Shown here piece by piece: positions 19,767-28,008 of a DNA stretch of 64,000 bases; the first letter of the stretch is position 1, and each line of letters starts with the position of its first letter. The notes beneath the pieces are model-generated. The model saw nothing but the letters and a program-made list of their open reading frames with translations, did no database searches and was not told where the DNA came from. Both the position numbers and the translations under genes were made by a program. Origin of the DNA: an uncultured bacterium (GTDB lineage Bacteria > Patescibacteriota > Microgenomatia > UBA1400 > UBA12108); NCBI GenBank assembly GCA_963981525.1, contig CAXCDZ010000001.1, forward strand, positions 11,217 to 75,216. The letters run 5' to 3'.

Positions 19767-20993
19767 CTATTTATTATAAAACAAATCTTGAATAGATTCT
19801 GCAGTATTTTTCCAGCTAAACTTGTTGACGATCGATTTCCTGGCTTTACGGGAAGCCTGCTGATATTTATTGGTATCCATCTTCATGACTTTTACGATGG
19901 CCTTGACCATCTTACCTGTGTCACGAGGGTCGACTAGATGGCCTGTAACGCCATCAACTACGTCTTCGTTCTTGACTGGATATCTAACGGCGAGAGTGCC
20001 GCAGGAGAGCGCCTCTTTTACCGGGAGAGCCATCGAGGTGGTACCAGACCGCTCAGAGTATGAGCATTGGACGAGAACCTTGGCCAGAGAGTATAGCTGG
20101 GGGAGGATGTGATAATCAACAAAACCTAGGAACTCAACAGAACTCTCTAGCTTGAGTTCGCTTGCCAGATTACGAAGTTTTTGCTCGGCCTTAGGATTCT
20201 TGATGGTTGAGGTGATTATCAGATGAGCTGATGGCACCTTTTTTTTGACTAGTGCGAATATTTTGATCATTTTGTCGGTACCTTTGACGGGAGAGTAATC
20301 AGTGCTGTGCACGACAACTTGCTTTCCTTTGTACTTTTTCTTGAGAGCACTGCTGGCAAATGGCTTGAAATGATCGGTGTTAATGCCTGCGTAGGAAATT
20401 GCGGGATTGACTCCAAAAATTTCTCTTATGTACTTTGCTGTCGTTTGATTGAGGGTAATTGTAGAGGTAGTTTTTTTAGTTGCTTTAATATCCATTTTTT
20501 TATAGGTAAGTGAGAGTGATCTGATTAAGAATCGCTTAAAAATTGGGAAATTGCTGATAAAGTCTTGATCGTGAAAAAAAGCAAATGGCTCAAAAATGTA
20601 CTGGATATGGCGAGATTGTGTTTTTGCCGCTAGATAATTGCCAACTACGTTCATGGGAAACATGTTTGAAACTATGATTGGTTTTTCACCCAACTCAAGA
20701 CTACTATTGGCTAGTCTTAAAATTGCAATGTTTTCCCACACAATTTGTATTGGGAGAGTTAGCCAGTAAATGAGAGAAGTTGAGGTTAGCTTATTAAGAG
20801 AAAGGAGTTGAACATCAAGCTTGGAGTAGTTATCCATCGCCTCAATAGAGGTGTTTTCGACGATAATAGTGATGCGAAATTTTTTACTAAGGATCTTTAT
20901 AACCTCGTAGATGAATTTGGTCCCTCCCATCCAGTAGAGGAAATGAGTATGAAGCCAAAATATATGAAGTTGTTTTTTCTTATTTTTTTTCAT
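19767..20993 (-). CDS. Glycosyltransferase family 4
   Basis: GT-B layout with C-terminal 'SYSERSGTTSMALPVKEALSCGTLAV' (E..E region). Confidence 0.65.
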   Translation of the reverse strand: MKKNKKKQLHIFWLHTHFLYWMGGTKFIYEVIKILSKKFRITIIVENTSIEAMDNYSKLDVQLLSLNKLTSTSLIYWLTLPIQIVWENIAILRLANSSLELGEKPIIVSNMFPMNVVGNYLAAKTQSRHIQYIFEPFAFFHDQDFISNFPIFKRFLIRSLSLTYKKMDIKATKKTTSTITLNQTTAKYIREIFGVNPAISYAGINTDHFKPFASSALKKKYKGKQVVVHSTDYSPVKGTDKMIKIFALVKKKVPSAHLIITSTIKNPKAEQKLRNLASELKLESSVEFLGFVDYHILPQLYSLAKVLVQCSYSERSGTTSMALPVKEALSCGTLAVRYPVKNEDVVDGVTGHLVDPRDTGKMVKAIVKVMKMDTNKYQQASRKARKSIVNKFSWKNTAESIQDLFYNK

Positions 20994-22317
20994 TTAAATA
21001 GTCTGCTAGATGGGTAAAGGCAAAATACATTAGTAGTGGTGTAAATGATAGCATCATTCTGGCAGCTGAGGGGCCAATAGAGGACCAAACGGTGTATTTT
21101 TGGGCAAAAATGTAGCCTCCGCCCAAGAGAATCGCTGTGCCTAGAGTAAAAATAATTAGCCATGCTGGGCGAATGCGCTTTCTTTCTCTAATCGTGAGGA
21201 ATGCTGCAAGAGCGGCAAGTAAGGTTGGGATCTTGATGTATGTAAGATAGTTTTTGACCAAGAAGAGCTCGATCTGGAATAGTTCTTTAAGGTTAAAATT
21301 AGCGAGAATTGATCCTAAGGAGATGCTAACCAGTCGTTTATTCGTGAGGTCAACAACAGCATAGGATGTCCAGAGATATCTGGAGAGAAAAAATAAGGCG
21401 ATTAGGACAGATGATTTAATAACTGATTTTCTTTTGACCATTTGGTAGAGCATGACTGAGATAGTAATAAGCCAGAAGGGCTCTAGAGATCTTGTGAAAA
21501 AAGAGGATAGGAGCATAAGAGTCGAGATCGTGGGTGAGTAGTTTTTTTTGTCGATGAGAAAATATATCGAGAAAAAGAAGAATATGGTGTACGGGAGATT
21601 GGTGTAGGCGATGGTTGAGTGCGAAAATAGTTCGGGAGATGCAGCAAGAATGAGAGGAAATAGGTGAGTTAGTTTGGGCTTGCCTGATCGTATCCCCCAT
21701 TTTTCATAGAAAAGTAGCACGAGACTAAGATAGAAGCCAAAGTACACTATCATCGGCGTTGAGGCACCCAAGATATAGCTCCAGGCATGCAAACTAGATG
21801 TCATAAATGGATAGCTATAGTAGTAGTCAAAATTGCTATAGGTATCGTGAATGTCGTTCCTAAAATCTTCGATCCGGATGTTTTCTGAGAAGACTCTGCC
21901 CCGGAAATCATAGAGAGTGAGAGCGTCCCAGTCTGTGACTGGCCAAGAGAGATTGTGGAGCAGAATGGTAGAAATAAATGCAATTAGGAGAAGGTTGAGA
22001 GGAAGCTTGAGGGTAGACATATATTTTGTAAGACTTATTCTCTTCCATACCCCACTACGCACGACTCGGAAGATGAAGTAAGCAAGAGAGATAATAGCTG
22101 CAGAGAAAACTAGCTGATGCGAAATGTTAGCTCCCGATATCATAATTGCGGTAAAGACAATGTTAATAAGGGTCGCCCCCAAGAGGAATGAGATCGAGAG
22201 AGTGAGGAGTGAGGATAACTTGTGAGCGAAGCGATTCCTGAATAGATCAAGACATGTCCACCCGAGAAGAGTAATTGTGAGGTATCCAGCAAATAGATTG
22301 ATAAGTGAAATAATCAT
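20980..22317 (-). CDS. Uncharacterised polytopic membrane protein, family 'A' (paralog of 25695..27014)
   Basis: 'WPVTDWDALTLYDFRGRVF', 'YSYPFMTSSLHAWSY', 'AYTNLPYTIFF' are shared with 25695..27014. Confidence 0.5.
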   Translation of the reverse strand: MIISLINLFAGYLTITLLGWTCLDLFRNRFAHKLSSLLTLSISFLLGATLINIVFTAIMISGANISHQLVFSAAIISLAYFIFRVVRSGVWKRISLTKYMSTLKLPLNLLLIAFISTILLHNLSWPVTDWDALTLYDFRGRVFSENIRIEDFRNDIHDTYSNFDYYYSYPFMTSSLHAWSYILGASTPMIVYFGFYLSLVLLFYEKWGIRSGKPKLTHLFPLILAASPELFSHSTIAYTNLPYTIFFFFSIYFLIDKKNYSPTISTLMLLSSFFTRSLEPFWLITISVMLYQMVKRKSVIKSSVLIALFFLSRYLWTSYAVVDLTNKRLVSISLGSILANFNLKELFQIELFLVKNYLTYIKIPTLLAALAAFLTIRERKRIRPAWLIIFTLGTAILLGGGYIFAQKYTVWSSIGPSAARMMLSFTPLLMYFAFTHLADYLNEKK

Positions 22318-22319
22318 AA

Positions 22320-27014: not shown

Positions 27015-27015
27015 A

Positions 27016-28008
27016 TTACTCTCCCACCCTGATAAGTCCCCAGTTGGTAGGAGATCCATGCACGCTTGGAGTGTAATTCTCATAATGTGAGGACTGGGCT
27101 TGATTATCGTCTGGGTTGTAGATAATTACTTCGCTTGCTGATATGGAGAAGTTAGGCCAAAACGTATCACTCTCAGTTGGCTGGAAATTCTTGGCAATTA
27201 CGATATATTGGAAATCACCATCTGGCAGAATCTCTTTGTTTCCGTCAAGCTGATTGATAATTTGTCTGGGATAGACGAAGTATCTAAATAGCTGGGCGTT
27301 TCCAACTGTTGGGTGATCGTTGGATCTTGGTGGGATAGCAATGAGGGAGTCGGGGGGGGTGTTGTCATTAACAAACTCCGCAAAATCATAAGTTACGCCC
27401 CAGATTGAACGCATCTTTTCACTTTTTGATGTAGTTGGTTCCTGAAGCATCATTCTGTTAAAACTTTGTTCGATTGCAAAAGTTGTTGTCAAGTTAGCTG
27501 CAAGATAACTCAAGGTAAAGTAGGTGATCAATACACATAAAACTAGATTAGTAACTGTTTTTGGGGAGAGTGATTTAATGACAAGTAGCGTGGTTCTTGT
27601 CTTGGGGAAGCTAGGAATTAACTGAATTAAGATTATGCTTGCGCCAAAGAGAATTACCAGGGGGAGAAGCTCGGGATGAAGATGATACTTGGTGAAGATA
27701 TAATTATCGTAGTTTTTTGCCTCCACTAGCGGCAAATATATCCAGGCAAGAGATGTGACTGACAGCAGTATCTTGTTGAGAAAAAAGATTGAGCTGTGGA
27801 GTCTTGATTGCTTACCATCTTGAGATAAGTGCAAATATACTAGCAGGCATGCTAGAAATAGCAACAGAATTATCCAAAGGGGCATCCCCGTATGAGTTTT
27901 GAGGAAGCCTTGGTACTTGTAGACCTCAACAAATGACAATAGATAGCCCACTAAGACAAGCCAAGGAGCTTTGTTAATTAAATTAGTCAGGTGTTTTTTT
28001 TGTACCAT
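27016..28008 (-). CDS. Membrane protein family 'B' (paralog of 22320..23894, no TPR)
   Basis: '[11 protein letters not shown]' and '[11 protein letters not shown]' are shared with the TPR-bearing paralog. 5 TM plus a soluble C-domain. Confidence 0.5.

Follow-up and report, generated by a model that had tools for sequence, protein, structure and literature searches.

Two anciently diverged B-A gene modules as putative heteromeric GT-C glycosyltransferases in a surface-glycan locus of an uncultured Microgenomates bacterium

Which function do two similar pairs of membrane protein genes have that follow each other in the same order in the genome of an uncultured bacterium of the Microgenomatia (Patescibacteriota), and how did they come to be separated by two genes of very low GC content? 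The question is raised by 64,000 nucleotides of contig CAXCDZ010000001.1 (assembly GCA_963981525.1, positions 11,217 to 75,216), which are referred to as the window in the following. A previous sequence-only reading had described the two pairs, B2-A2 and B1-A1 in the direction of transcription, as a segmental duplication that was followed by the horizontal insertion of genes for a HlpA-like protein resembling GT-A glycosyltransferases (the GT-A-like gene) and for an FkbM methyltransferase. All six open reading frames (ORFs) of that reading are present on the minus strand at the same positions (Table 1), as are all other genes between 18.5 and 29 kb, which are connected by tiny spacers or overlaps. 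The analysis presented here suggests that the two B-A cassettes diverged anciently and that they probably represent heteromeric glycosyltransferase modules with a GT-C-type catalytic component, belonging to a surface-glycan locus of Microgenomates from the candidate phyla radiation (CPR).

As judged from protein alignments, A1 and A2 as well as B1 and B2 are true paralogues, excluding an effect of the common transmembrane (TM) composition. Composition-corrected BLASTP comparisons indicate 28% identity over 335 amino acids (aa) for the two A proteins (E 4e-24) and 28% over 294 aa for the two B proteins (E 6e-27), and the corresponding Smith-Waterman scores were 317 compared to 54±8 for shuffled sequences (z 31) and 289 compared to 39±7 (z 37), respectively. 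Only 40-75 was reached in control alignments of A1 or A2 with six other multi-TM proteins encoded in the window. The DNA sequences of the copies share a single match of 38 nt with 84% identity, located over the WDALTLYDF motif, which points to an old divergence and contradicts a fresh duplication. The paralogy of both pairs in the same order is therefore confirmed, and the three motifs previously described as shared (WP..DWD.L.LYD, NLPY, and L.RYF.YPRQ) are found in both copies on columns that are invariant in the respective families, namely W130, D131, L135, D137, R139, Y238, N240, and L241 of A, and R230, Y231, F232, Y234, P235, and R236 of B.

Protein A is a GT-C-fold glycosyltransferase according to its structural model. 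A word-index search among 5.8 billion proteins returned 23 homologues, two of which carry precomputed PF13231 (PMT_2) matches, and the AlphaFold2 (AF2) model obtained with their alignment is all-helical (pLDDT 88.2, pTM 0.91) and shows the multi-pass fold with the conserved helical core of the GT-C superfamily. Comparison by hhalign with the PMT_2 paralogues of the window gave a weak but positive result (probability 64%, E 6.6e-5). Neither A1 nor A2 has a Pfam match at E<=0.1 or any match in NCBIfam, and A stays below the gathering threshold of the Pfam PMT_2 model (PF13231; GT39-GT83-like), so it appears to be a remote relative rather than a member of this family. Foldseek matches of A carry no significant E-values, and searches of the PDB sequences with the A and B profiles returned chance matches only (E above 1). 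ArnT/PMT_2 proteins exceed protein A by about 100 residues and possess a C-terminal periplasmic domain that is missing in A. The long loop following TM4 of A contains the motif W130-D131...L135-Y136-D137-x-R139, in which W130, D131, D137, and R139 do not vary over 24 sequences; because a K/R-rich cytoplasmic loop precedes it, this loop should face outward. Conserved acidic residues thus appear in the first extracytoplasmic core loop, where the catalytic acidic residues of GT-C enzymes are located, and by analogy the loop may have a catalytic role. The previous statement that a GT-C motif is not evident has to be revised accordingly for A, which contains the acidic motif W-D-x3-L-Y-D-x-R.

Protein B is assigned by sequence comparison to a separate, discrete family that has no Pfam entry. 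Just 6-7 relatives were found by word-index search, compared to at least 763 cluster representatives, 477 of them at E<=1e-10, when a profile of the N-terminal 300 residues was searched exhaustively. Most members consist of 300-350 aa, so B2 represents the ordinary form, and B1 belongs to a rare clade of C-terminally extended proteins with 515-546 aa. No relatives of B1 or B2 were found in Pfam, NCBIfam, or among PDB sequences; the Pfam scan gave only faint DUF6798 matches (13-16 bits, below the cut-off) over the stretch FV.DNTP..S.I..PP, which are left uninterpreted. Hydropathy and K/R distribution predict five TM helices with the N-terminus inside and the C-terminus outside, in which case the conserved loops YxGF and NYVFxxHxHP and the C-terminal domain with the motifs SYDxKM, WGxxY, PPQ, PW, GN, RYFLYPR, and WP would be exposed to the outside. 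Many W, Y, N, R, P, and H residues of the outer domain are invariant, and the alignments of B1 show the core motifs HxHP, WG..Y, PPQ, GN, and RYFLYPR. In the parts for which the AF2 model of B1 is usable, it additionally shows a beta-sandwich insert, which is confined to the long-B clade and lacking in the aligned sequences of B2 and the family member P0031, and a tetratricopeptide repeat (TPR)-like end (AF2 residues 442-523) that matches TPR structures; B2 and most of the B family contain no TPRs. B1 shows no similarity to GT-C proteins. A possible homology of B to the C-terminal module found in single-chain PMT_2-type GT-C enzymes was examined as well. An hhalign comparison with the PMT_2 paralogues of the window gave a non-significant probability of 0.3%, and among all ORFs of 43 loci, a relaxed hmmsearch with the B profile detected nothing beyond true B proteins; such a homology is neither supported nor excluded by the sequences. 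Some B variants are 458-495 aa long (P0034, P0040, P0041, P0044, P0055, P0082, and P0093). In the two that were read, P0034 and P0041, two copies of the N-terminal TM/loop module with its NYVFxxxH loop precede the conserved outer domain, and the other five were grouped with them from their length and two matched stretches only.

A view on other genomes shows how closely the two genes are connected. The A motif was scanned over one genome per species, with the A alignment serving as query for related loci, which yielded 39 loci in addition to three further ones (L001-L003); by their record titles, the 39 derive mostly from Microgenomates or other Patescibacteria. As detected by searches of all ORFs with hidden Markov models (HMM), A has a B gene immediately upstream, in the same orientation, in 35 of the 39 loci and in L001-L003; of the four exceptions, one is located at a contig edge (L030), one represents a fragmented copy (L041), and two are A-like genes that are only distantly related (L039 and L042). 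The gaps between B and A are mostly -4 to +4 nt over 46 pairs. The distance matrices of A and B are correlated with r=0.82, a value reached by none of 2000 permutations in a Mantel test, and the same clades occur in the trees of both proteins, including those of paralogous modules in a single genome, suggesting that the modules duplicate and diverge as units. The 1:1 rule has exceptions in irregular arrays, namely B-A-A with two A genes per B (L034:8943-12720) and B-(238 aa)-B-A in L016 and L027. A fused 759-aa protein (P0107) contains A and B in frame, connected by a K/R-rich linker, so that the C-terminal end of A would share the cytoplasmic side with the N-terminal end of B. Its value as a Rosetta-stone fusion of cognate partners had to be downgraded, since the contig (L048:763-4484, Logan SRR29492071) shows the array B (308 aa), A~B, A, in which A is joined to the B of the next module.

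Many of the related loci are titled as uncultured Gammaproteobacteria or Pseudomonadales (L004, L007, L010, L011, L013, L015, L017, L019-L021, L023, L026, L028, L030, L032, L037, L038, and L042). These titles are probably wrong because of the shared synteny and the close relationship of their A and B proteins to those of Woesebacteria and other Microgenomates; L007 and L010, for example, cluster tightly with L040 from 'Candidatus Woesebacteria'.

By analogy to all characterised GT-C enzymes, A would use a polyprenyl-phosphate-linked sugar as donor at the outer face of the membrane and attach the sugar to a glycan or protein of the surface, with its acidic loop acting as catalytic or donor-binding loop. 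Two GT2 synthase-like genes of the window (Table 1) may supply such donors. B, which is encoded upstream and appears translationally coupled to A, may be its dedicated non-catalytic subunit, involved in acceptor binding or stabilisation in the same way as PIG-X/Pbn1 assists PIG-M/Gpi14, and the beta-sandwich and about two putative TPR repeats of B1 outside the membrane would retarget the enzyme to a protein or a more complex acceptor. Downstream of the B2-A2 module are the GT-A-like and FkbM genes, and downstream of the B1-A1 module a GT4 and a DegT-like gene; the respective cytoplasmic glycosyltransferases (GT4 or GT-A-like) and tailoring enzymes (DegT-like or FkbM) may build or modify the lipid-linked substrate. 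A physical complex of A and B, the type of donor, and the acceptor are what we infer from these arrangements. A more far-reaching version, to which we would give slightly less than even chances, regards A and B as the two subunits of an obligate GT-C glycosyltransferase that has not been described before and is so far known from CPR/Patescibacteria genomes only, in which A would have shed its outward-facing acceptor-binding domain to B. B would then have diversified to retarget the enzyme, leading to the short, the duplicated-TM-module, and the beta-sandwich plus TPR forms, the last of which would resemble a TMTC-type enzyme in trans.

Several observations weigh against the assignment of B as a subunit of A. 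Adjacency and co-divergence would fit two consecutive steps of one pathway as well. Three-component GT-C systems are typically paired with GT2 polyprenyl-phosphate-sugar synthases, whereas the genes following A code for GT4 or GT-A-like enzymes. The AF2 model of B1, obtained from 8 sequences, is poor in the conserved domain (pLDDT around 30 for residues 162-289), so the role of this domain is a guess from residue conservation. Finally, the A~B fusion is present on a single 4.5-kb contig and may be due to a sequencing error at the stop codon. Neighbouring genes in glycan operons often code for sequential enzymes, and B may be an independent protein of the same pathway that is merely co-transcribed with A, for example a flippase or chaperone for lipid-linked sugars, another transferase, or a factor for glycan export or chain length. 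The 5-TM core that B has of its own, with invariant outer-loop residues, and the connection of different modules in the sole A~B fusion would agree with such a role. We regard it as rather unlikely, because the B-to-A order is near-universal and involves start/stop overlaps, because duplications comprise B-A units and never A or B alone except in the three irregular arrays (L034, L016, and L027), because the clades of A and B agree even where paralogous modules belong to a single genome, and because the conserved residues of B are mostly located outside of the membrane, unlike those of small flippases. That A may instead be a glycan polymerase or ligase of the Wzy/WaaL type with B as its co-polymerase, as the Wzx-like flippases encoded in the locus (Table 1) and the similarity of a membrane partner with an outer domain to Wzy/Wzz might suggest, is quite improbable.

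PIG-X and Pbn1, to which the role of B was compared above, have a single TM helix instead of the five of B. The nearest functional analogue of the proposed module is glycosylphosphatidylinositol (GPI) mannosyltransferase I, which consists of the catalytic GT-C protein PIG-M/Gpi14 together with an accessory protein, PIG-X/Pbn1 (PMC9306709, PMC12653191); it is eukaryotic, its accessory subunits show no sequence relation to B, and the corresponding association of A with B would have to be deduced from the genomic arrangement. If A1 and B1 act together, they would be alike to TMTC1-4 and the bacterial PMT_2-TPR proteins in combining a GT-C protein with outward-facing TPRs. However, these proteins carry the TPRs on the GT-C chain itself, whereas only about two putative repeats are located here on a separate polypeptide, B1; A1 contains no TPR in its Pfam scan or AF2 model, and A does not match the TMTC or PMT models of Pfam. 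The likeness to TMTC enzymes noted in the previous reading therefore holds in trans only (A1 as GT-C and B1 as TPR component) and fails for a single GT-C-TPR chain. The nearest bacterial systems are ArnT/ArnC, GtrA-GtrB-GtrC, and the streptococcal Pgf system (PgfS, PgfM1, PgfE, and PgfM2; PMC5856776), all of which lack a B-like partner and employ a GT2 synthase instead of the GT4 or GT-A-like proteins as immediate partner. ALG12, ALG9, and ALG3, the mannosyltransferases of the endoplasmic reticulum lumen that depend on dolichyl-phosphate-mannose, are eukaryotic single polypeptides and share 9-12% identity with A, in which, unlike in these proteins, the acidic loop is preceded by three additional TM helices at the N-terminus. 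A literature search on GT-C enzymes in Patescibacteria or Microgenomates found no paper.

In spite of the tiny genomes of CPR bacteria, the genome studied here devotes at least 64 kb, essentially on one strand, and at least ten GT-C-type enzymes to surface glycosylation, and within this machinery the B-A cassette is conserved, has been duplicated multiple times, and is completely without annotation. If B is indeed a dedicated GT-C subunit, the module would represent a counterpart of PIG-M/PIG-X in prokaryotes and offer a handle on how GT-C enzymes gain acceptor specificity. The A and B families may be employed as profile models for a better annotation of Patescibacteria genomes, and ancient tandem modules with variable genes between and after them may provide these episymbionts with a route to glycan diversity.

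The other part of the question concerns the gene pair between the modules. The closest related locus, L003, is organized as A-B-A-GT4-DegT, with identities of 54% to A1, 46% to B1, 45% to A2, 58% to GT4, and 81% to DegT. Its A2 orthologue overlaps the following gene, the orthologue of B1, by 14 nt; as the orthologues of both modules abut each other, the modules must have been adjacent already in the common ancestor. The GT-A-like/FkbM pair is absent from this junction, and among the loci compared it occurs between two modules in the window only. With a GC content of 33.4% and a GC content at third codon positions (GC3) of about 30%, the region of the pair (23911-25716, 1.8 kb) deviates more strongly towards low GC than any other part of the window, compared to a mean of 43.1% for the window and of 43.4% (sd 2.0, minimum 38.9%) for non-overlapping segments of the same size; the previous reading was right about the outlier, although its estimate of 28-30% was too low. 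The low GC and GC3 values continue into the last ~40 codons of A2 (25695-25850, GC3 0.15) and, in B1, into the first 50-100 codons (23600-23894, GC3 0.30-0.38), which may indicate recombination junctions inside the flanking A2 and B1 genes or simply AT-rich gene ends.

The name previously given to the FkbM gene is confirmed, and that of the other gene agrees with the database names of its relatives. The FkbM protein matches PF05050 (E 2.4e-25, 90.1 bits at a cut-off of 22.7) and TIGR01444 (E 1.1e-34, 119.9 bits at a cut-off of 37.7). The GT-A-like protein has no Pfam or NCBIfam match even at E<=10 and is 36-43% identical to the products of plasmid genes annotated as 'nucleotide-diphospho-sugar transferase', 'hemolytic protein HlpA-like protein', or 'glycosyltransferase', for example 43% to a 'nucleotide-diphospho-sugar transferase' from Spirosoma and 36% (E 1e-67) to a 'hemolytic protein HlpA-like protein' from Azospirillum; it contains an EDD triplet (GIILEDDCLP). 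Another homologue (40%), encoded on a plasmid of Synechococcus sp. NIES-970 (L047:3007-3900, AP017960.1), is annotated as 'methyltransferase FkbM', probably a mis-annotation, and adjoins genes for a 'methyltransferase type 11' and GT1 enzymes; the association of glycosyltransferases with methyltransferases thus recurs outside the CPR.

Homologues of the GT-A-like gene (32-44% identity) directly follow A in six related loci (L006, L019, L022, L026, L028, and L031), indicating that B-A-GT is a normal layout of the cassette, and FkbM homologues are found a few kb downstream of B-A in six loci as well (L004, L010, L013, L015, L022, and L040). The pair therefore appears to be a familiar accessory of the cassette family, and the earlier description of a module split by an insert is only partially supported: the pair is compositionally foreign and missing at the L003 junction, but a GT-A-like gene after A is common among the relatives. 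Judged from its composition and distribution, the pair is probably a lineage-specific, laterally acquired addition to an inherited B-A-B-A tandem, which would add an extra sugar and a methyl group to the glycan. Acquisition by recombination from a lower-GC relative is favoured as the likelier course of events, because of the GC anomaly, because the best matches of the GT-A-like protein derive from the low-GC Microgenomates loci L005 (32% GC) and L006 (30% GC), and because repeats, tRNA genes, and recombinases are missing.

The evidence on the direction of this event is mixed. Seamless embedding in the operon weighs against an insertion, as do flanks without direct repeats beyond short chance ones or any recombinase gene in a 64-kb window free of tRNA genes, so that the repeats, integrase or transposase, and tRNA target of a mobile genomic island are all missing. 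Moreover, none of 22 contigs encoding identical B1 or GT-A-like proteins represents an insert-free allele, all showing the same layout, and a loss in L003 is conceivable since GT-A-like genes normally follow A. The pair may then have been ancestral to B2-A2 and deleted in the L003 lineage, its low GC content being gene-specific. This would agree with the homologues after A and the FkbM genes within the same loci of the relatives, with the lack of mobile-element scars, and with the 22-nt overlap of A2 and the GT-A-like gene, which resembles a 20-nt overlap in L028. We consider such a course unlikely, because GC and GC3 are far below those of every other gene in the window, as would not be expected of a vertically inherited pair, which should have equilibrated. 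In addition, the nearest relative has an intact, overlapping A-B junction in place of the pair, and L005 and L006 provide the best GT-A-like matches, yet are not the closest relatives by their A or B sequences.

The tandem arrangement itself is ancient and older than the lineages compared here. The paralogues are only 25-28% identical, compared to 45-54% for the orthologues in L003, whose upstream A protein shows 45% identity to A2 and 25% to A1. A1 and B1 cluster with the proteins of L001, L002, and L003, which share the long B form and a GT4 gene downstream, whereas A2 belongs to another clade. B-A-B-A arrays recur in at least six other Microgenomates genomes (L008, L018, L025, L031, L036, and L048) and are followed by GT4 (and DegT) in L008, L018, L025, and L036; modules with other spacings or contents are present in L001, L005, L012, L016, L027, L031, and L034. 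A recent duplication in situ with subsequent horizontal insertion and ongoing diversification, as proposed in the sequence-only reading from the common order, orientation, and motifs of the modules and the low-GC pair between them, is thus hardly credible in view of the distant paralogues with their single 38-nt DNA match, the much closer orthologues, the separate clades of A1 and A2, and the tandem arrays shared by several genomes, and only the duplicated module in the same order remains of it.

The surrounding genes are partly conserved together with the cassette. GT4 genes with 46-58% identity directly follow B-A in L001, L003, L034, and L036, and a 51% identical homologue is located downstream of the GT-A-like gene in L026; DegT-like genes are 63-81% identical in L001, L003, L026, L034, and L036. 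The upstream block GT-C(~600)-GT-C(~546)-GT2(~220)-GT2(~257)-epimerase-B-A is syntenic in many genomes. In most related loci, the Fcl-like epimerase shows 63-80% identity; its gene is located directly upstream of B in eight of them (L002, L007, L010, L024, L032, L035, L037, and L040), next to genes for A and B proteins of only ~25-35% identity between the same genomes. This conservation hints at a GDP-6-deoxyhexose that feeds into the pathway.

Table 1. Features of the B-A modules, their neighbours, and the remaining window
Feature	Position	Strand	Remarks
Fcl-like (GDP-L-fucose-synthase-like) short-chain dehydrogenase/reductase, epimerase/reductase	27987..28943	-	318 aa; adjoins B2 upstream; PF01370 E 4.6e-55
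B2, short typical B form	27016..28008	-	330 aa; 5 predicted TM helices; E 6e-27 to B1
A2, GT-C-fold membrane glycosyltransferase paralogue	25695..27014	-	439 aa; A-family HMM E 4.6e-126
A2 motif WPAKDWDSLALYDY	around 26629-26666		
GT-A-like ('HlpA-like' nucleotide-diphospho-sugar transferase)	24763..25716	-	317 aa; GC 31.8%; overlaps A2 stop by 22 nt
FkbM-family S-adenosylmethionine-dependent methyltransferase	23911..24759	-	282 aa; GC 35.2%; GC3 30%
B1, whole gene	22320..23894	-	524 aa
B1 core, residues 1-290	23025..23894	-	5 predicted TM helices and conserved B domain; B-family HMM E 4.5e-67
B1 beta-sandwich insert, residues 293-414	22653..23018	-	AF2 strands, pLDDT 75-89
B1 putative C-terminal TPR region, residues ~440-524	22323..22577	-	roughly 2-2.5 repeats
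A1, GT-C-fold membrane glycosyltransferase (modelled fold)	20980..22317	-	445 aa
A1 acidic motif of first outside loop WPVTDWDALTLYDFR	21901-21945		
GT4 (Glycos_transf_1) glycosyltransferase	19767..20993	-	408 aa; PF00534 E 4.2e-23; downstream of A1
DegT/RfbH-like sugar aminotransferase or dehydratase	18580..19764	-	394 aa; after GT4; PF01041 E 1e-60
PMT_2-type GT-C genes (among them)	122-1510, 11929-13479, 30707-32347, 32350-34194, 40556-42172, 46292-47743, 52518-54005, 55911-57419		
PTPS_related membrane proteins	38087-39697, 50982-52514		
DUF2142 membrane protein	13489-15060		
Wzx-like flippases	6943-8229, 49535-50998		
GT2, polyprenyl-phosphate-sugar-synthase-like, PgfS/ArnC-like	16122-17042		286 bits
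GT2, polyprenyl-phosphate-sugar-synthase-like, PpgS/AglJ-like	30048-30710		

The longest ORF of A2 starts at 27083 and public gene calls at 27059 or 27014, of which 27014 is favoured as best fitting the N-termini of the family and the usual B-A spacing. The Fcl-like protein reaches 289.7 bits with the NCBIfam model GDPFucSynFcl (cut-off 500 bits), and the DegT-like protein scores 211 bits with RfbH, which is also below the cut-off. Positions 1-64000 of the window represent a surface-glycan supercluster located almost entirely on the minus strand, which contains at least nine PMT_2-type GT-C genes and, in addition to the features listed in Table 1, many GT2 and GT4 genes, several methyltransferase genes, and a gene for GalE.

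Two further genes of these loci may be connected with the pathway. An unassigned gene coding for ~350-367 aa is located after B-A in L004, L010, L011, L012, L013, L015, L029, and L040, occupying the slot in those loci where neither GT4 nor GT-A-like genes follow B-A, and may represent a third alternative family of partner glycosyltransferases. The other codes for a 110-aa membrane protein (29714-30046; DUF2304 by a precomputed Pfam match) between two GT2 genes, an arrangement which is kept upstream of epimerase-B-A in many loci, and its product is a possible candidate for a lipid-linked-sugar flippase.

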